DNA of 24,132 nucleotides from a virus (taxonomy: Duplodnaviria > Caudoviricetes): positions 1 through 24,132 of IMG/VR virus record IMGVR_UViG_3300027533_000088. One strand, 5' to 3'. The translations under genes and the position numbers were made by a program. Positions 3,925 through 19,597 of the stretch are shown here, piece after piece (the stretch's first letter is position 1; each line of letters starts with the position of its first letter). Below the pieces are notes generated by a model. The model was not told the DNA's origin. It saw nothing but the letters and a program-made list of their open reading frames with translations, and searched no databases.

Positions 3925-5307
3925 ATGCGGCTGTTCGGCCTCGAGATCACCCGGGCGCGGTCGGTGACCGTGCCCGGGGCCCCGGTGCCCGGGACGGGCG
4001 GCTGGTTGTCCGTCGTCCGCGAACCGTTCACGGGCGCCTGGCAGCAGAACATGGAAACCAGCGCCCCGTCGGTGCTGGCGTATTCCGCCGTCTATGCGTG
4101 CACGACACTGATCGCCCAGGACATCGGCAAGATGCGCTTGCGCCTCGTCGAGCAGGACGCCGCGGGGATCTGGTCGGAGATCGACAGCGCGGCCTTTTCC
4201 CCCGTGCTCGCGAAGCCGAACCGTTACCAGACGATCAATAAATTTCTCGAACAGTGGATGGTCTCGAAGCTCACCTGGGGCAACACGTACGTGCTGAAAG
4301 AGCGCGATGCCCGCGGCGTGGTGGTCGCGCTCTATGTGCTCGACCCGCAGAAAGTCAAGCCGCTCGTCACGCCCGACGGCGCCGTCTACTACGAACTCAC
4401 GACCAATCCGCTCGCCGGGCTCGAGGGTACCGTCACGGTCCCGGCGGCGGAAATCATTCACGATTTGATGGTGCCCTTGTTTCATCCGCTGGTGGGGGTC
4501 ACGCCGATCTATGCGTGCGGGCTGGTGGCGCTGCAGGGCTTGAAGATCACCGAAAACTCCACGAACTTTTTCGCGAACGGCTCGAGCCCGGGCGGCGTGT
4601 TGCTGGTGCCGGGCCAGATCAACAAGCCGCAGGCGGACGAAGTCGCGGCCGAGTGGGCCGCAAAATATACCGGGATGAATGCGGGCAAGGTGGCGGTGCT
4701 GCCGAACGGCATCACGTACGAGGCGCTGAGTGTCAACGCGACGGATGCGCAGTTGATCGAACAATTGAAATGGACCGTGGAGCAGGTCTGTAGCTGTTTC
4801 CACGTTCCGGCCGCGCTGATCGATTCGAGCCACCAGCCGCCGTACGCGAACTCTGACCCGCTGATTCAGATGTACTACTCGCAGTGCTTGCAATGCCTGA
4901 TCGTGGCGCTCGAGCTGGCGCTGGATCATGGGCTCGGTCTGGTCGACGTGCCGGGCAAGACCTACGGCACCGAGTTCGACATCAACGATTTGCTCTGGAT
5001 GGACACCGCGACCAAGACGAAAGCGGCGACCGATGCGATCATCGGCGGGCTGCTCTCGCCGAACGAATCGCGGGCGACCTACTTTGGCGTCGGCCCGGTC
5101 GAGGGCGGCGACACGCCATACCTTCAACAGCAGCAATTCTCGCTAGCGGCGCTCGCCGCCCGGGACGCCAACGACCCCTTCGCCAAGCCGCCCAGCGCCC
5201 CGCCAGCGGCGTCGGCGACGCCGGAGGAGGACGACATCGACCTGGCGTCGTTCGCGGCCCTGCTGACCGCCAAGGCGGCCCAGGAGGGGTGGCTACACGA
5301 TGCCTAA
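3925..5307 (+). CDS. Portal protein (HK97 family)
   Basis: AVYACTTLIAQDIGKM, KPNRYQT, WGNTY, FFANGSSPGGVL, DAQLIEQ, LSPNESR, GPVEGGD motifs; ATG 4 nt after the capsid stop. Confidence 0.95.
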   Translation: MRLFGLEITRARSVTVPGAPVPGTGGWLSVVREPFTGAWQQNMETSAPSVLAYSAVYACTTLIAQDIGKMRLRLVEQDAAGIWSEIDSAAFSPVLAKPNRYQTINKFLEQWMVSKLTWGNTYVLKERDARGVVVALYVLDPQKVKPLVTPDGAVYYELTTNPLAGLEGTVTVPAAEIIHDLMVPLFHPLVGVTPIYACGLVALQGLKITENSTNFFANGSSPGGVLLVPGQINKPQADEVAAEWAAKYTGMNAGKVAVLPNGITYEALSVNATDAQLIEQLKWTVEQVCSCFHVPAALIDSSHQPPYANSDPLIQMYYSQCLQCLIVALELALDHGLGLVDVPGKTYGTEFDINDLLWMDTATKTKAATDAIIGGLLSPNESRATYFGVGPVEGGDTPYLQQQQFSLAALAARDANDPFAKPPSAPPAASATPEEDDIDLASFAALLTAKAAQEGWLHDA

Positions 5308-13360: not shown

Positions 13361-13939
13361 ATGCAGAAGCTCTGTAAGCGCTGTCAGAGATGGAAGGCGT
13401 TCACGGACTACCACTGCAATCGCGCCGCACGCGATGGCCGACGCGATGTCTGTAAAGCGTGTGCCATTGCGAAGACACGCGCATGGCAGCGTGAGAATCC
13501 TGAGCAGCGGCAGCAGTGGGAAGACACCCATCGCGAGACACGGCTCGCCCGGAAACGGCAGCAGTACCATCAGGATGCGCCGGCTCAACGCCAGCGAACG
13601 CGGCAGTGGCGGGCGTTGAATCCCGACACCTTCAAACAGGCCGTGCGTCGCTGGGCCGTGGCCCATCGAGACCGATGCGCGGCGTATATCCGTGAGCGCC
13701 GTCGCATGGAAGCCCAAGCGATGCTCGGCTGCCACAAGCGCGACTTGCGACCGATTTACGATCAGGCCGTCGCCTTAACCCGGCAGACCGGCATCCGGCA
13801 CAACGTGGATCACATCGTGCCGTTGAGACATCCGCTGGTCTGTGGGTTGCACGTTCCGGCGAATTTGCAAGTGCTCACGGCAGAGCAGAATCGTTTGAAA
13901 CACAACAGCTTCACGCCGTTGATGACCTGTAATTTTTAG
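13361..13939 (+). CDS. HNH endonuclease with N-terminal Zn-ribbon
   Basis: CKRC...CKAC N-terminus; HNVDHIVPL..VCGLHVPANLQVL..N..K.N HNH motif. Confidence 0.88.
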   Translation: MQKLCKRCQRWKAFTDYHCNRAARDGRRDVCKACAIAKTRAWQRENPEQRQQWEDTHRETRLARKRQQYHQDAPAQRQRTRQWRALNPDTFKQAVRRWAVAHRDRCAAYIRERRRMEAQAMLGCHKRDLRPIYDQAVALTRQTGIRHNVDHIVPLRHPLVCGLHVPANLQVLTAEQNRLKHNSFTPLMTCNF

Positions 13940-13965
13940 TTTTCATAGCCGCCGTTATCAGACCC
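13938..13965 (-). other. dif-like XerC/XerD recombination site
   Basis: Minus strand reads GGGTCTGATAA-CGGCGG-CTATGAAAACT, an 11-6-11 layout. Left arm ends in ATAA like E. coli dif; right arm matches B. subtilis dif TTATGTAAACT at 9/11. Confidence 0.55.
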
Positions 13966-14001
13966 TCTACCGTTTATTCGCCCCGACTGGAGGCTCGCTA
14001 G

Positions 14002-14199
14002 ATGGCTACCGTGTGTCCGAGAGACGGGAAGTCCTGTATCGACGACCTGTGCCGAGGCTCTGGAGTGTGCGGCATCACTGGTCGGGACATGTGGGATGAA
14101 TGTCCGACATGTCACGGCGTCTACTCGACTGAATTTGGCGTCGATTGCGCGTGTGAGCCGTGCGACGAGTACGACGACGACCCGCAGGACTGGGCATGA
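14002..14199 (+). CDS. Small Cys-rich hypothetical protein
   Basis: GGAGG ribosome site; several Cys including CPTC; acidic tail. Confidence 0.7.
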   Translation: MATVCPRDGKSCIDDLCRGSGVCGITGRDMWDECPTCHGVYSTEFGVDCACEPCDEYDDDPQDWA

Positions 14200-14360
14200 C
14201 GACGGTCGAGTGGGTAGTCGTGGCCGTCGTGCCATTCATCTGCGGACTTCTCGGCACCCTGTTGCTTGGATGGCTCGGTCGGCGGCAACAGGCTGCGAAC
14301 TACATGGCCGAGTGCCTGCTTGGTGAGCACAAGCCACAGTCGGCGCCACAGTGGCGCTGA
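14196..14360 (+). CDS. Small single-TM membrane protein
   Basis: ATGA overlap; WVVVAVVPFICGLLGTLLLGWLG hydrophobic run followed by RR. Confidence 0.65.
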   Translation: MTTVEWVVVAVVPFICGLLGTLLLGWLGRRQQAANYMAECLLGEHKPQSAPQWR

Positions 14361-14574
14361 ACATGTCGCACTCACATTCGCGGGCCGATGCCGCGAACGC
14401 CATGCAGGGGCCGCTACTCGGATGAAGGTTCTGCCGATGCCCACAGCGGCACAGCACGTCGCGCGGCCTGCCGCCCTTTTTCCCGTTGGCGCGGGCGGCC
14501 TCCGTCTTGGCCTCGCTGCGGACCTTGCCGCCCTTCCGGCCAAGGGCGACGGCGGCGGGGTTTTTACGGGTCAT
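14236..14574 (-). CDS. Small basic KGG-motif protein with Cys-rich segment
   Basis: ATGA overlap with the upstream gene; KNPAAVALGRKGG...SEAKTEAARANGKKGGRP; tail overlaps the convergent gene by 125 nt. Confidence 0.7.
   Translation of the reverse strand: MTRKNPAAVALGRKGGKVRSEAKTEAARANGKKGGRPRDVLCRCGHRQNLHPSSGPCMAFAASARECECDMFSATVAPTVACAHQAGTRPCSSQPVAADRAIQATGCREVRR
14333..14355 (+). repeat. R0: GCCACAGT x2 with 12-bp period, including palindrome GCCACAGTGGC
   Basis: GCCACAGT at 14333-14340 and 14345-14352; palindrome resembles GCCACGGTGGC in R2/R3. Confidence 0.55.
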
Positions 14575-14801
14575 GAGAACACCTTCATGCTGCCGATGAT
14601 GCCCAGTAGCCGCTTGCACTCGTCGCACTCGCATGGCTTCACGAGTGCCAGCTTGGCCCGTGCGGCACTCTTGGTGTCCTCGACAATCCCATGTGTGCCA
14701 GGGTCGTCGCCGTTCTGGAATCCTGGCCGCAGGAAGATCCAGAAACCATCACTGTCCCGATACTCGTTCTGCACGATGTCTGCCCGCTTGAGTCGTGGCA
14801 T
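14571..14801 (-). CDS. Hypothetical protein (CECDEC motif)
   Basis: GAGGTG ribosome site and a consensus promoter immediately upstream. Confidence 0.75.
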   Translation of the reverse strand: MPRLKRADIVQNEYRDSDGFWIFLRPGFQNGDDPGTHGIVEDTKSAARAKLALVKPCECDECKRLLGIIGSMKVFS

Positions 14802-14820
14802 GTCTTCACCTCAGGACACT

Positions 14821-14849
14821 ATTATAACCGAAGCGGTTAGGTTTGTCAA
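14821..14849 (-). promoter_or_regulatory. Consensus sigma70 promoter with palindromic operator
   Basis: Minus strand TTGACA (14849-14844), 17 bp spacer, TATAAT (14826-14821); palindrome TAACCG-AAG-CGGTTA at 14825-14839. Confidence 0.85.
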
Positions 14850-14861
14850 GTGGGCCAGTTC

Positions 14862-14908
14862 GAGGCTGACGGCTCCCAGTCCGGCGACCAGTGCCACGTT
14901 GGCGGGGC
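14862..14908 (+). repeat. Cassette-boundary repeat R1
   Basis: GAGGCTGACGGCTCCCAGTCCGGCGACCAGTGCCACGTTGGCGGGGC; 45/47 identical to R3. Confidence 0.95.
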
Positions 14909-14913
14909 TTTGA

Positions 14914-14928
14914 CCGCCGTTATCAGAC
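14914..14928 (+). repeat. Second copy of CCGCCGTTATCAGAC (dif-like spacer plus XerC-like arm)
   Basis: Exact 15-bp direct repeat of 13949-13963. Confidence 0.8.
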
Positions 14929-14950
14929 TCAGACGGGCGAGGATTTAACG

Positions 14951-15415
14951 ATGGATAGACGCGATCCGTGGGAAGAATTAGCTGACAGATTCTTTGTTGC
15001 GGGGCAGATGGACGCACAAGGGGCCGCTGCCGAGAGGCGAAAGACACCAGGCGAGTCCTCCGCTGATCCCCGAGCGTCACGAGAGGCGCTGGCGAAGAAG
15101 CTGGAGGAAATTGCAGGATGCATTGACGCTGATTGGCCTGTTGGCTCTGTCAGCGCAGCCACGCTGCGTGAAGCCGCTGGACTTCTGCGTCCGAGTCCGA
15201 GCCATTCATCGGAGGTCGCTCGTCTTGACAAACTACGGAAGACCTTTGAGCAGTTGCAGCGGTCAGCGGCTGCCGAACGTCGGCGGGATCGGTTTGATGC
15301 CGAGGAGTCACTGCGGAACAAGGCCAACGCGACAGCAGAGGAGTTCATCGCGAAAGCCGCTGCGCTCCTGTCTCTCCCTGTCCCCACAAAACAAGAGCAG
15401 GAAGATCTGCCGTGA
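14951..15415 (+). CDS. Hypothetical helical protein (cassette 1)
   Basis: GAGGA ribosome site; stop TGA is the first triplet of repeat R2. Confidence 0.7.
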   Translation: MDRRDPWEELADRFFVAGQMDAQGAAAERRKTPGESSADPRASREALAKKLEEIAGCIDADWPVGSVSAATLREAAGLLRPSPSHSSEVARLDKLRKTFEQLQRSAAAERRRDRFDAEESLRNKANATAEEFIAKAAALLSLPVPTKQEQEDLP

Positions 15416-15449
15416 CGGCTACCAGTCCGGCGACCAGTGCCACGGTGGC
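15413..15449 (+). repeat. Cassette-boundary repeat R2
   Basis: TGACGGCTACCAGTCCGGCGACCAGTGCCACGGTGGC, 37/37 identical to 15676-15712. Confidence 0.95.
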
Positions 15450-15462
15450 TGGGCTGGTGTGA

Positions 15463-15672
15463 ATGTCTGGAAGTTTAAAGCCGGGGCTCTGCTGCCCTCT
15501 CTGCGGCCGGTCGGTGCTCCTCGTGTATCACGAGTGGAGCGAGGCGGTGTTGTTTGAGTATCACCACCACGAGGACGCGGAGCGCGATCGACGCGGGGAA
15601 GCGCCGCAACCGTGCGTCGTCGTCTTGCCGTACGACGAAGGCCAGGCGCGTTATCGGGAGGAGTCCGCGTGA
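15463..15672 (+). CDS. Small hypothetical protein with CPLC motif (cassette 2)
   Basis: Exactly fills the R2-R3 interval; stop overlaps the start of R3. Confidence 0.7.
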   Translation: MSGSLKPGLCCPLCGRSVLLVYHEWSEAVLFEYHHHEDAERDRRGEAPQPCVVVLPYDEGQARYREESA

Positions 15673-15717
15673 GGCTGACGGCTACCAGTCCGGCGACCAG
15701 TGCCACGGTGGCGGGGC
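15671..15717 (+). repeat. Cassette-boundary repeat R3
   Basis: GAGGCTGACGGCTACCAGTCCGGCGACCAGTGCCACGGTGGCGGGGC. Confidence 0.95.
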
Positions 15718-15718
15718 A

Positions 15719-15949
15719 ATGACCATGCGCGAAAGCGAACAGGACCGACTAACGCGGCGCGGGTTCGACGGGCTATATCACCCTGACCCGGCGATGCAGT
15801 GCGGGTGCTTTCTCCACGACCTACGCCCGTGCGGGCAAGTCGGCACCGGGTGCCGTGGGGGGCACGCTGACGCAGAGGGCACTGGGGTCTATAAGCCATC
15901 GGCGGCTACCAGTCAGGCTACCAGTGGCCGTTTTATTGGGCTTTTTTAA
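15719..15949 (+). CDS. Small Cys-containing hypothetical protein (cassette 3)
   Basis: ATG 1 nt after R3; GFDGLY...CGC..DL.PC motif; reads through R4. Confidence 0.65.
   Translation: MTMRESEQDRLTRRGFDGLYHPDPAMQCGCFLHDLRPCGQVGTGCRGGHADAEGTGVYKPSAATSQATSGRFIGLF
15903..15929 (+). repeat. Partial repeat R4 (GGCTACCAGT x2, 12-bp period)
   Basis: CGGCTACCAGTCAGGCTACCAGTGGCC. Confidence 0.8.
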
Positions 15950-15962
15950 CGATCCGTTGGGC

Positions 15963-16208
15963 TCATAATCCAACGAGCGTGATCGGATCCTCTTCCTCCT
16001 CCTCCTCTTCCTGCCCGCTGAGTTGTCGTGCGATCGACAGCAGGAGCCGCTGCTGCGCGGGTTCCAGCTTCTCGAAGACGCGCAACAGCCTCAACAACTC
16101 CAATCGACTCGGCCCAGACGCATCGCTTGCCGATACGTTGCCAGCCGGGGTGCCAGCCGATCGCCTTTTTCGTCGTATCGGTTTATCGGTCAATCTGGCG
16201 CCTTTCAT
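15963..16208 (-). CDS. Small hypothetical protein, repressor C-terminal-like helix pair, poly-Glu tail
   Basis: LLRVFEKLEPAQQRLLLSIARQL resembles the neighbouring 16303-16500 product; start uncertain. Confidence 0.5.
   Translation of the reverse strand: MKGARLTDKPIRRKRRSAGTPAGNVSASDASGPSRLELLRLLRVFEKLEPAQQRLLLSIARQLSGQEEEEEEEDPITLVGL
16139..16159 (+). repeat. Putative integrase arm-type sites (left pair) TGCCAGCCG x2
   Basis: TGCCAGCCG at 16139-16147 and 16151-16159. Confidence 0.75.
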
Positions 16209-16259
16209 GGAGGACCGATAGAACGTCTATCGGTTGGCCGATATTTGCTAACGATTTGA

Positions 16260-16289
16260 GTGGAGGCGGCGGGATTCGCACCCGCAGCC
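16260..16289 (-). other. attP core: fragment of the tmRNA (ssrA) 3' end
   Basis: Minus strand GGCTGCGGGTGCGAATCCCGCCGCCTCCAC gives a T-arm plus acceptor strand closely matching typical ssrA 3' ends (GCGGGTTCGATTCCCGCCGCCTCCACCA); lies between arm-site pairs downstream of the integrase. Confidence 0.8.
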
Positions 16290-16302
16290 CGTGGGCATTT
16301 TC

Positions 16303-16500
16303 CTAAGATTTGGTGGGGGTGCCAGCCGCGTTGCCAGCCGGTTCCACCGACTCGCCATTTTCGGACATGGGCGGGAGTCCCTCGATCTCCGCGATCCGGC
16401 GCGCCACGATCCAGAGGAGGCGTTGGTCTGCAGGGGCCAGCCGGTCATAGATGCGCGCGAGCCACTGCGCATCGTCGGAGAGCAGCCTGTCATTGTTCAC
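16303..16500 (-). CDS. Small hypothetical protein, paralogue of 15963-16208
   Basis: GTGA overlap with the upstream gene; WLARIYDRLAPADQRLLWIVARRI. Confidence 0.6.
   Translation of the reverse strand: MNNDRLLSDDAQWLARIYDRLAPADQRLLWIVARRIAEIEGLPPMSENGESVEPAGNAAGTPTKS
16320..16340 (+). repeat. Putative integrase arm-type sites (right pair) TGCCAGCCG x2
   Basis: TGCCAGCCG at 16320-16328 and 16332-16340. Confidence 0.75.
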
Positions 16501-16712
16501 GGGAGGCGCCCCATAATCGCGAACCCCTGCCAGAACACCCCAAGCACCAGGACAATAACCATCCCCAGCATCCACTTGACCAGCAAGAGATCGCCGCGGA
16601 GGTCGGCGAGGGCTTTGTCATAGCCGGCGACCTCTTCGGCCGCACGCTGCGCCTTTTCCGCATTCCCCGGATCGAGCAGGGCATCATGGAGCGCCCCCAG
16701 TCGTAAACTCAT
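16497..16712 (-). CDS. Small coiled-coil protein with C-terminal TM helix
   Basis: ATGA overlap with the integrase stop; LADLRGDLLLVKWMLG followed by a hydrophobic helix. Confidence 0.75.
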   Translation of the reverse strand: MSLRLGALHDALLDPGNAEKAQRAAEEVAGYDKALADLRGDLLLVKWMLGMVIVLVLGVFWQGFAIMGRLP

Positions 16713-17761
16713 GCTTCCCTCTTGATGAGGCGCGGCGTCCAGCCGTGCCGGTGATCCATCTGTTCACTCATCCGCTGTAGCCTGGTGCCCAGGACCGGCA
16801 CGTAGTTCTTCCTGGTGGTCTCGATCCGTTTGTGGCCGGCGCCGACCTGAATATCGGCGAGGTCGACACCGCGCTCCGAGGCCGCCGTCCAGGCGGAGTG
16901 CCGCACGTTGTAGGGCTTGACCGTCTTCGGCCAACCGGCATCGTGCAGCCGCCGGGCGAAGTGGCCATCCTCGCTAAACTCGCCCCACGCCTCCGCGGCA
17001 ATGAACTCCTCCCAGGCAATCAGCATCTCGTCATTGAGATACAGCCCTGGCGAGTCGCCGTCTTTGGCGGCGCGGTCATACCAGATGCGCCGGTCGAGGT
17101 TGAGATCGGCGGGCTGGGTGCGCCCGACTTCGGCGGGGCGCTTGCCGCAGGCCGCCATGACCATCAGCCGGGCGCGGTCTTTGAGCGCATGCTGGCCGCC
17201 GGGTCGGCCCCGGCCGGTGCGGGTGCCGGTCTGCCACTGCTGGGCTCGCTTGAGCAGCTCCGCGCATACGTGGTTGACGATGTCGACCGGGACGAGCTGC
17301 TTGGCCGGCTTCGGGGGCTTCAGCCACTTGAGCCCATCGCACGGCGTGGGCGCATCTTCACCGTCGAGAATTTTGTAGAACTGCCGCAAGGCGCTCACCC
17401 GATTGTTGACGGTGCGCGCGGCGGCGCCCGATTCCAGCCACTGCCCGCGGGCGGTGCGGATGTGCGATTTCTCGACGGCTTCCCGGCTGAGCGTTCCGAT
17501 GAAGGGCACCCACGCTCGGAGATTCGCGCAGTAGTCGGACCACGACGCCAGCTCTTTGCGCTGTGGGAGCACGCGCTCGATGTCCGCAGCCATCGTGCCG
17601 GGCGTGGCCCCGCGCTTCGCCCAGGCGGGAAACCGTTTCCGCAGCTCGGCGGCTTTGCGTTCCTTCCATTGGGCAATGACGCGCTTCGGCGTCGAGGGCG
17701 CGAAGCGGTGCTCACGCTGGCGCCCGGCGACCGTGACGGTCGCGCGAATCATCTCGGCCAT
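16709..17761 (-). CDS. int: Tyrosine recombinase / phage integrase
   Basis: SAM-like ARTVNNRVSALRQFY; catalytic R (CGKRPAE), K (AAKDG), YNVRH, AGH...TT...Y; N-terminal arm-binding-like extension. Confidence 0.92.
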   Translation of the reverse strand: MAEMIRATVTVAGRQREHRFAPSTPKRVIAQWKERKAAELRKRFPAWAKRGATPGTMAADIERVLPQRKELASWSDYCANLRAWVPFIGTLSREAVEKSHIRTARGQWLESGAAARTVNNRVSALRQFYKILDGEDAPTPCDGLKWLKPPKPAKQLVPVDIVNHVCAELLKRAQQWQTGTRTGRGRPGGQHALKDRARLMVMAACGKRPAEVGRTQPADLNLDRRIWYDRAAKDGDSPGLYLNDEMLIAWEEFIAAEAWGEFSEDGHFARRLHDAGWPKTVKPYNVRHSAWTAASERGVDLADIQVGAGHKRIETTRKNYVPVLGTRLQRMSEQMDHRHGWTPRLIKREA

Positions 17762-18669: not shown

Positions 18670-18809
18670 CCATCGCCGTCGCCGTCGCCGTGGTGCTGGG
18701 GCTCGGGGTGGCCGTGGCCTGGGCGCTCGCCCGGTTCGCGCGCGAGCTGGCCCGGTATGAGGAGTGGGACGAGCCGATCGTGCGACAGAAACGGAAGGGA
18801 TGGAGATGA
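18666..18809 (+). CDS. Small single-TM protein (47 aa, not in the ORF track)
   Basis: ATGA overlaps at both ends; MTIAVAVAVVLGLGVAVAWALARF. Confidence 0.7.
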   Translation: MTIAVAVAVVLGLGVAVAWALARFARELARYEEWDEPIVRQKRKGWR

Positions 18810-19597
18810 ACAACACCGCCCTGGCGTCTGTGCCACCGCCGACGATCACGTCTGAACAGCTCGCGCTCATCAAGCAGACCATCGCCAAGGACGCGACCCC
18901 GGTCGAACTCGATCTGTTTCTCTACGACAACGCGCGGCGTGGGCTGCATCCCCTGGACAAGCTGCTGCACTTCTCGAAGCGCGGCGGCAAGTACACGCCG
19001 ATCACGTCGATCGACTTCATGCGCTCGCGGGCCGCCATGACGACGGACTACGCCGGCCAGGACGACGTGGTGTTCTCTGGCGCTGCCGGCCATCTCGACT
19101 TCACCGCGACCGTGACGATCTATCGCTTCGTCCACGAACAGCGGTGCGCCTTCACGGCCACGGCGCGCTGGTCCGAGTACAAGCCAGACCAAGACTTTAT
19201 GTGGCGCAAGATGCCGCACACCATGCTCGGCAAGTGTGCCGAAGCCCTGGCGCTGCGCAAGGGCTTCCCGCAGGAGTTGTCGGGGCTCTACGAGGCGGCC
19301 GAACTCGACCAGGCCGAACGGCAGACGGTCGACCACAACACCGGGGAGATCGTCGAGGCCGCCCCGACGACCGGCGTGACCGACCTGCGGGCGCCTCGCC
19401 TGATCACCGAGGCGCAGCGCAAGCGGCTCTTTGCCATCGCGAAGAAAGCTGGGTGGTCGAAAGACGCGATGAAGCAGGCGCTCACGGATCGCTGCCAGGT
19501 GGAGTCGACCCAGGCGATCCCGGTGACGCACTACGACGACATCTGCGCGATGTTCAGCGAAGCGCCGGTCGCCGATCCAAACGAGACCCCGTTCTGA
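18806..19597 (+). CDS. bet: Bet/RecT-family single-strand annealing protein
   Basis: LIKQTIAKDAT..EL.LF...GLHP..K.; TSIDFMR; WRKMPHTMLGKCAEALALRKGFPQELSGLY. Confidence 0.9.
   Translation: MNNTALASVPPPTITSEQLALIKQTIAKDATPVELDLFLYDNARRGLHPLDKLLHFSKRGGKYTPITSIDFMRSRAAMTTDYAGQDDVVFSGAAGHLDFTATVTIYRFVHEQRCAFTATARWSEYKPDQDFMWRKMPHTMLGKCAEALALRKGFPQELSGLYEAAELDQAERQTVDHNTGEIVEAAPTTGVTDLRAPRLITEAQRKRLFAIAKKAGWSKDAMKQALTDRCQVESTQAIPVTHYDDICAMFSEAPVADPNETPF

Follow-up and report, generated by a model that had tools for sequence, protein, structure and literature searches.

Organisation of the array

The window, by which we mean the whole stretch of 24,132 nucleotides, is a complete virus record that encodes a terminase, a protease-capsid protein, a portal protein, tail proteins, a tyrosine integrase, an HTH regulator, Bet and an HNH protein. 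The phage is temperate, with a genome of 24 kb. Most of the stretch was found in runs from sediment and groundwater metagenomes, the closest capsids from culture stood at about 41%, and scans of genome contigs for a host locus gave no match. Small genes and two kinds of short repeat, R and D, lie between the HNH gene and the predicted attP (related loci carry the prefix L, sequencing runs the prefix X):

13949..13982, plus strand: repeat D, copy 1 (15-base core and leader), opening the array after the HNH gene
14002..14360, plus strand: two small cargo ORFs (65 and 54 aa) of the first interval, no family
14236..14849, minus strand: insert in the first interval, with a perfect sigma-70 promoter (14849-14821) and two small ORFs
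14867..14909, plus strand: R1, predicted copy of a left attP arm without core; 40/43 to the L070 arm, 37/43 to the arm of array-free L087
14914..14928, plus strand: repeat D, copy 2, joined to R1
14951..15415, plus strand: cargo ORF 1, 154 aa; its stop codon forms the first three bases of R2
15413..15455, plus strand: R2, predicted arm copy without core; 39/43 to the L070 arm
15463..15672, plus strand: cargo ORF 2, 69 aa, no family
15676..15718, plus strand: R3, predicted arm copy without core; 39/43 to the L070 arm
15719..15949, plus strand: cargo ORF 3, 74-76 aa, crossing R4; also the last cassette of L044 (83% aa)
15900..15968, plus strand: R4, predicted whole left arm, left core half and 7-base overlap (15962-15968), then foreign DNA
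16139..16339, no strand: predicted attP of the window, with arm pairs at 16139-16158 and 16320-16339 and a tmRNA 3'-end core at about 16258-16290 (minus strand)
16709..17761, minus strand: tyrosine integrase, tmRNA type; 28% identical to the integrase beside an intact tRNA-Met attP (the L009 enzyme)
18764..19597, plus strand: Bet/RecT single-strand annealing protein (Pfam RecT 6.7e-19; TIGR01913 74 bits, cut-off 77)

The coordinates of R1-R4 in the original prediction, their spacings of 546, 263 and 224 bases and the identities of R1 with R3 (45/47) and R2 with R3 (37/37) were reproduced, as were the stops of cassettes 1 and 2 (15413-15415 and 15670-15672) and the starts at 15463 and 15719 claimed to lie at the repeat edges. 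A 23-mer from the repeat matched four places in the window and none in 100 shuffles. The repeats are neither an assembly artefact nor unique to this contig, two possibilities that had been raised: L001, an independent assembly, shows 3564 bases at 100% identity; runs X3, X4 and X5, which may be the source of the window, have contigs that tile the array with 0 other letters and break at the repeats; and run X6, not marked as a possible source, gave pieces with 0 differences to the array.

Other parts of the description had to be revised. R4 had been taken for a partial copy and is instead a complete arm allele reaching 15968, 69/76 identical to the L044 attP; ORF 3 runs through it to a stop at 15947-15949. 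One ORF per interval, as proposed, holds for cassettes 1-3 in the window, but the intervals of relatives contain one to several genes. The GCCAC-N-GTGGC palindrome described in the repeats is not kept in relatives, where 11 extra alleles occur across its 11 positions. R1 is made up of two 10-base units at a 12-base period, an 11-base spacer and a GGGGC motif. The second repeat, D (15 bases, CCGCCGTTATCAGAC), had been overlooked; as it occurs at 13949 as well as at 14914, the array starts at 13949, about 900 bases to the left of R1.

The cargo of the window gave no match in PHROGs, Pfam, PADLOC and NCBIfam (5 ORFs) or in the Atlas (1 ORF); ORF 1, with no family and no usable Atlas match, shares its 5' part with L077. 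No sigma-70 promoter or terminator was called at R1-R3 or D, and a weak terminator-like match was obtained at R4 only. An Rfam scan at the repeats for CRISPR or structured RNA gave no match up to E 5, and comparison of the repeat with annotated phages and plasmids no significant match (best E 2 and 0.1).

Part of the reverse-strand insert is also found within the L019/L064 array. The spacer of its promoter unit (14849-14236, minus strand) has a 13-base palindrome, AACCG-AAG-CGGTT, and one of the two genes behind the promoter encodes a basic protein with KGG and GGRPR motifs. Promoter, palindrome and gene recur in the L019/L064 array (L019, about 110-440), and the unit is possibly a small autoregulated module moving as cargo.

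Relation of the repeats to tRNA-Met attachment sites

In sister phages the same 43 bases occur a single time, at a distance of 55 bases upstream of a tRNA-Met(CAU) core, and a corresponding pair adjoins the integrase on the opposite side. At the five intact sites (L044, L070, L071, L087 and L088) pairs of the unit GGCTACCAGT and its variants stand at -55/-43 and at +174/+184-187 of the core. This core is the 3' half of a tRNA whose anticodon is CAU (Rfam tRNA 27.9 bits, just below gathering), and the end of the integrase gene comes after it. In L064 and L082 the left pair and the core are present and then the contig ends. L087 serves as a control: its one arm directly follows a structural gene, and both D and cargo are missing. 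L088, also a control, has one arm and no repeats of it, accompanied by a D variant and a short stretch of accessory sequence. On an arm-site matrix whose left-arm part is itself related by descent to the repeats, the eight units of R1-R4 rank first among 48,232 positions, with scores of 13.5-20.2. R1-R4 are very probably copies of the sequence predicted, in sister phages, to form the left attP arm of an integrase that targets tRNA-Met. D was also considered as an arm site of this integrase and rejected (score -2.3, equalled by 325 of the 48,232 positions).

The modelled L009 integrase has three N-terminal strands (10-36) and a helix (42-58) ahead of the core domains, and the whole model matched the fold of Tn1549 Int best, as well as those of Xer and lambda Int. 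An N-terminal arm-binding domain is accordingly predicted from the model for L009-type integrases, and we infer that the tRNA-Met integrase binds the terminal arm. L106 has a tRNA-Met site with another arm pair and no array. Extra inverted arm-type pairs or triplets were seen past the right arm, near the integrase 3' end, in L088 (oriented 4553-4576) and L106 (6179-6212). L061 has an arm-like pair (1997-2022) about 720 bases beyond its overlap junction, possibly the right arm of an attP with inserted DNA.

The attachment site of the window's own integrase is different. Its predicted arm pairs, TGCCAGCC, are kept in L002 and L032, its tmRNA core was recognised by Rfam at E 2.5e-5 with a score under gathering, and its arm sites score from -3.0 to -8.5 on the matrix of the repeat arms. 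Among 13 loci with integrases of the window's family, many have their own pairs with a 12-13-base period near tRNA-like cores; L034 and L037 lack both. The same repeats adjoin at least three unrelated integrases, the third of them in L053.

Past R4, likeness to tRNA ends with the 7-base anticodon loop (15962-15968); a tRNA match was obtained in L009. Six of the 13 distinct arm-overlap junctions pass into foreign DNA at the edge of the overlap: four of these fit a core half-site at 5-6/8 (background 5% and 0.8%) and two at 2/8. Contigs of X4 and X7 show the same kind of break at the arm-overlap. R4 may be a vestigial attR-like junction left by integrase recombination at secondary sites, a process by which the array would have moved onto other integration modules. 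Beyond the junction the window has a low-complexity TCC run (15982-16018), which corresponds to a Glu run in a minus-strand ORF (16208-15963). A tRNA-Ala-like 3' fragment adjoins a different att site in L032 (7720-7775), L113, L114, L115, L117, L118, L119, L124, L126 and L105; with these fragments, the phage family stacks dead attachment pieces and often swaps integration modules.

Cargo diversity and junctions in related arrays

Pattern scans yielded 24 and 14 viral loci and 28 metagenome loci. Chance matches were removed (16/24 and 7/14 viral loci carry no array), and the metagenome sample is biased to one D variant, which the scan required. With chance matches (2/23 clusters) and duplicates set aside, 21 contig groups remain in which the elements are present, on one strand throughout; L069/L081 and L081/L085 partly overlap and L076 has a single D. 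D was located at 45 sites (25 contigs), and the sequences that flank it downstream are of 37 distinct kinds. Intervals measure 49-1972 bases (median 271, n=65, 23 representative contigs), and 75 ORFs picked as cargo, some of them spurious, fell into 57 families, 48 of which are singletons. Named functions among 50 proteins scanned are DNA methyltransferases, two PAPS reductases, ASCH/DUF3850, DUF7694 and DUF3846. Cassettes that arrays have in common stand beside different neighbours, so the main expectation of the original prediction, conserved repeats with variable gene content and neighbours, is borne out across relatives. Repeated arms occur in only three of 30 tail-related loci, a single arm in three and none in 24 (four with less than 600 bases downstream), which indicates a trait of a lineage rather than of the family. 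Local repeat clusters of another kind, unrelated to the arm, lie 3' of tail genes in L121, L129 and L124.

Homologues of cargo genes are located outside arrays and belong to sister-phage operons that lie at a distance from att sites: a PAPS reductase in L070, a C5 methyltransferase in L087 and G016, and a DUF7694 gene in L088. Near donors with an informative end are available for two cargo genes only. Cassette 1 of L064 is 83% identical to a non-array gene of G016, and the match spans ATG to TGA plus CG; the C5 methyltransferase matches the G016 copy up to TGACG, while the L087 copy ends in TAACG. At both G016 joins the five bases in common, TGACG, are the start of the arm. Within a D12-type methyltransferase gene of L009 (5385-5545), a sequence of about 45 bases stands in three tandem copies.

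Points of exchange between arrays vary: L062/L071 switch at the 5' edge of the arm, L061/L085 behind arm position 21 and L044/L075 where D begins, and three pairs (window/L064, L081/L085 and L059/L075) switch within the D leader. This spread favours homologous, Bet-type shuffling. Internal arms form an allele group of their own and are not simply terminal arms left over: they start with TGA in 33/40 cases against 3/14 terminal ones and have G at position 15 in 30/40 against 1/14 (the L063 copy, at a contig end, may be terminal). TTTT fills the gap behind GGGGC in 12/12 terminal but 1/42 internal arms, and a GGCG variant common in internal copies is found in none of the 25 units of intact sites. 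Extra alleles number three at the 16 arm-unit positions against 11 at the 11 spacer positions, a difference due partly to search bias.

In 16 of 24 distinct internal arms without D, TGA stands exactly five bases 3' of GGGGC, after a variable 4-base gap, and this register holds also where the following gene has its own ribosome site. Together with the excess of TGA starts, it makes the junctions sharper than loose recombination predicts, which speaks against such recombination as the main route; start-stop overlaps and ribosome-site spacing account for part of the sharpness. The TGA frame is the longest open upstream frame in 22/34 internal arms (p 2e-4), and starts often follow GGCGG by 6-11 bases. 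D copies are all direct; some first copies read ATAA-6-TTAT and inner ones otherwise. The D leader varies among copies, and its main form enters an ATG directly in many arrays.

Assembled contigs gave no clear case of circles of 263, 546 or 224 bases or of repeat-to-repeat deletions, both of which had been foreseen. A contig of X8 skips cassette 2 (263 bases, depth 3.4), while the same run has cassette 2 at depth 3.7, ending before the repeats; a graph artefact at the 37-base repeat is as likely as a deletion, and the other joints are cross-matches between repeats. Truncated arms with the same break after GGCGA into AGGA occur in L053 (oriented 7120), L066 (oriented 1701) and a loose end of X4 (at window position 15433). 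Two further origins of the arms were rejected: a small insertion element with target duplication, as the four bases before the two TGAs differ (compared by eye), and derivation of inner arms from overlap junctions by loss of 21 bases, the sequence so predicted not being seen.

Known systems and possible origins of the array

Like an integron, the array consists of gene-sized units in one orientation with a stop codon at the site edge, but it has no attC hairpin and no IntI, and its exchange points are spread. The repeats are not attC-like, as had been stated from the outset (z-scores of -2.65 to +1.7 over 12 folds, with no common structure), and an attC-like fold of arm plus D was not significant. 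The ends of attC sites carry an AAC/GTT pair, which is absent from the repeats. The view that the integrase is not an IntI also stands: against a TIGR02249 cut-off of 265 bits, the window's enzyme scores 21.2 and that of L009 29.2. The sites of pdif modules are XerC/D sites that match the host dif and alternate in orientation.

A closer likeness is to the PeSL cassettes of the T4-like phages RB49 and phi1 and the linker model of modular evolution. In the accessible text of PMC2839356 these cassettes form a hypervariable region where small orphan genes alternate with short, conserved repeats, for which the authors propose exchange by homologous recombination on less than 50 bases and draw a parallel with integrons. 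Variable orphan genes would be exchanged at a repeat by homologous recombination in both cases; a PeSL is, in that account, a promoter plus stem-loop terminator of large lytic phages, whereas the repeat here is a putative attP arm in a 24-kb temperate phage. Arm-type sites of lambda-type integrases offer the other comparison. The available part of PMC3203893 describes those of L5, Giles and Cluster K phages as integrase-specific pairs of 10-11-base direct repeats flanking a tRNA or tmRNA core, and here too paired direct repeats flank a tRNA core beside a tyrosine integrase, but one arm has been multiplied without core between genes, also beside integrases with other arms. Accretion arrays, as far as the accessible portions of PMC5704250 and 10.1101/2020.12.28.424599 describe them, likewise have cargo units parted by attachment-site remains near a tRNA site; they lie in host chromosomes and keep the core or a partial tRNA, whereas the present array is in a phage and its inner copies have no core. 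The SAS/ESAS repeats of Cluster K mycobacteriophages also stand just upstream of the starts of small non-essential genes, but are, from the same partial source (PMC3203893), genome-wide and tied to gene families, while the repeats here occupy one slot, are apparently derived from attP and have varying cargo. The array probably works by linker-mediated modular shuffling of the PeSL kind, being neither a PeSL nor an integron.

In our preferred model, which we consider probable, the core-less arm copies are linkers at which a Bet-type recombinase swaps accessory genes, as the main mechanism. Bet acting on short homologies, one of the two drivers originally suggested, remains the likeliest shuffler, the window having a Bet homologue and the exchange points being spread. 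The window's Bet/RecT is the likely enzyme; among array carriers, Bet was confirmed in the window and L002. For Red-beta, 23-27 identical bases suffice according to the available text of PMC3945230, and identical repeat runs reach 37 bases in the window and 70 in L002. Insertions would be tolerated in the slot that separates attP from the last conserved gene, and operon genes of co-infecting phages may first have been joined to the arm end through 3-5 bases in common, such as TGACG at a stop codon. Joins that preserve genes would survive, the arm giving the gene before it a stop and probably the gene behind it a ribosome-binding-like GGCGG. With a number of arm and D copies in place, homologous recombination could add, drop and reassort units, and the cognate tRNA-Met integrase would likely have grafted the array onto other integration modules via secondary sites, as at R4. 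For this model the sequence identity to the predicted arm, its fixed place in intact sites, the variable cargo, the exchange points and the stop-codon joins are counted as observations.

The sharp junctions bring in a different possibility, capture directed by the tRNA-Met integrase, which would act on arm copies and join gene-sized pieces to arm edges, for example by cutting at GGG-CT of GGGGC and tolerating a mismatched 4-5-base overlap. The cleavage context on the left side of the true core does recur in GGG-CT, 21 bases upstream of it. The fixed TGA register behind a variable gap, the distribution of TTTT between terminal and internal arms, the ATG-to-stop precision in one donor pair and the secondary-site joins at the true overlap all agree with capture, as does the match of the modelled integrase to Tn1549 Int. 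Tn1549 Int tolerates mismatched overlaps, and a variable gap between fixed blocks recalls such recombinases. Joins without a core-like right half-site, spread exchange points, truncated arms and remnants of earlier genes, the lack of the GGCG variant at intact sites and the persistence of arrays next to non-cognate integrases are at odds with it, and we regard capture as unlikely, though worth keeping in mind. The same low expectation applies to its fullest form, in which a lambda-type tRNA-Met integrase would join single ORFs, start to stop, from co-infecting phages and so constitute an analogue of integrons derived from attP. A role for the window's own integrase in recombining the repeats, the other driver originally suggested, is highly improbable. 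It lies close to them and its arm octamer shares 6/8 bases with the repeat unit, but the repeats fit the arm sites of a different, tRNA-Met integrase and are unchanged whichever integrase follows; because its tmRNA core and arm sites are others, it is probably not the driver.

Two explanations dispense with shuffling as the main process. Site-specific accretion, by tandem integration with decayed elements at a host tRNA-Met, excision at outer sites and trimming of inner sites to the arm, has precedents in ICE/CIME tandems and tycheposons (accessible parts of PMC5704250 and 10.1101/2020.12.28.424599), and this phage family does stack dead att pieces such as the tRNA-Ala fragments. It would leave a core or tRNA fragment at inner sites, but the overlap is found only after the last left-arm copy of each array, and cargo homologues sit in sister-phage operons; we hold this origin to be improbable. 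Slimmer still is the chance that the repeats persist chiefly as signals for expression (stop codon, ribosome site, D promoter or leader, roadblock bound by integrase), in the manner of start-associated sequences, with shuffling as a side effect. All copies being on one strand at gene borders, the spacing of starts behind GGCGG, the loss of the terminal T-run in internal copies and the D leader entering ATG would fit. Against these stand the lack of called promoters and terminators and of a consistent hairpin, and the variation of the D leader, and the formation of the junctions would be left unexplained.

In the literature searched, which covered few subscription papers, no account came up of an attP arm multiplied without its core among the accessory genes of phages. 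For the view that phages evolve in modules by way of linkers, concrete cases are few, and the origin of the linker is rarely known. Under the linker model it can be read here as a fragment of attP, and relatives with and without arrays are available together with donor genes and points of exchange, so that linker recombination can be set against random joining plus selection on a 43-base element. The array also shows how methyltransferases and other genes of likely anti-defence function can pass between phages. Were the integrase to make the joins, this would be a new activity for lambda-type integrases.

The HNH gene of the window (13361-13939) is 94% identical in L019/L064, a phage with another gene order, where it lies 3' of annealing-protein and exonuclease-like genes; in both phages the first D directly follows HNH.
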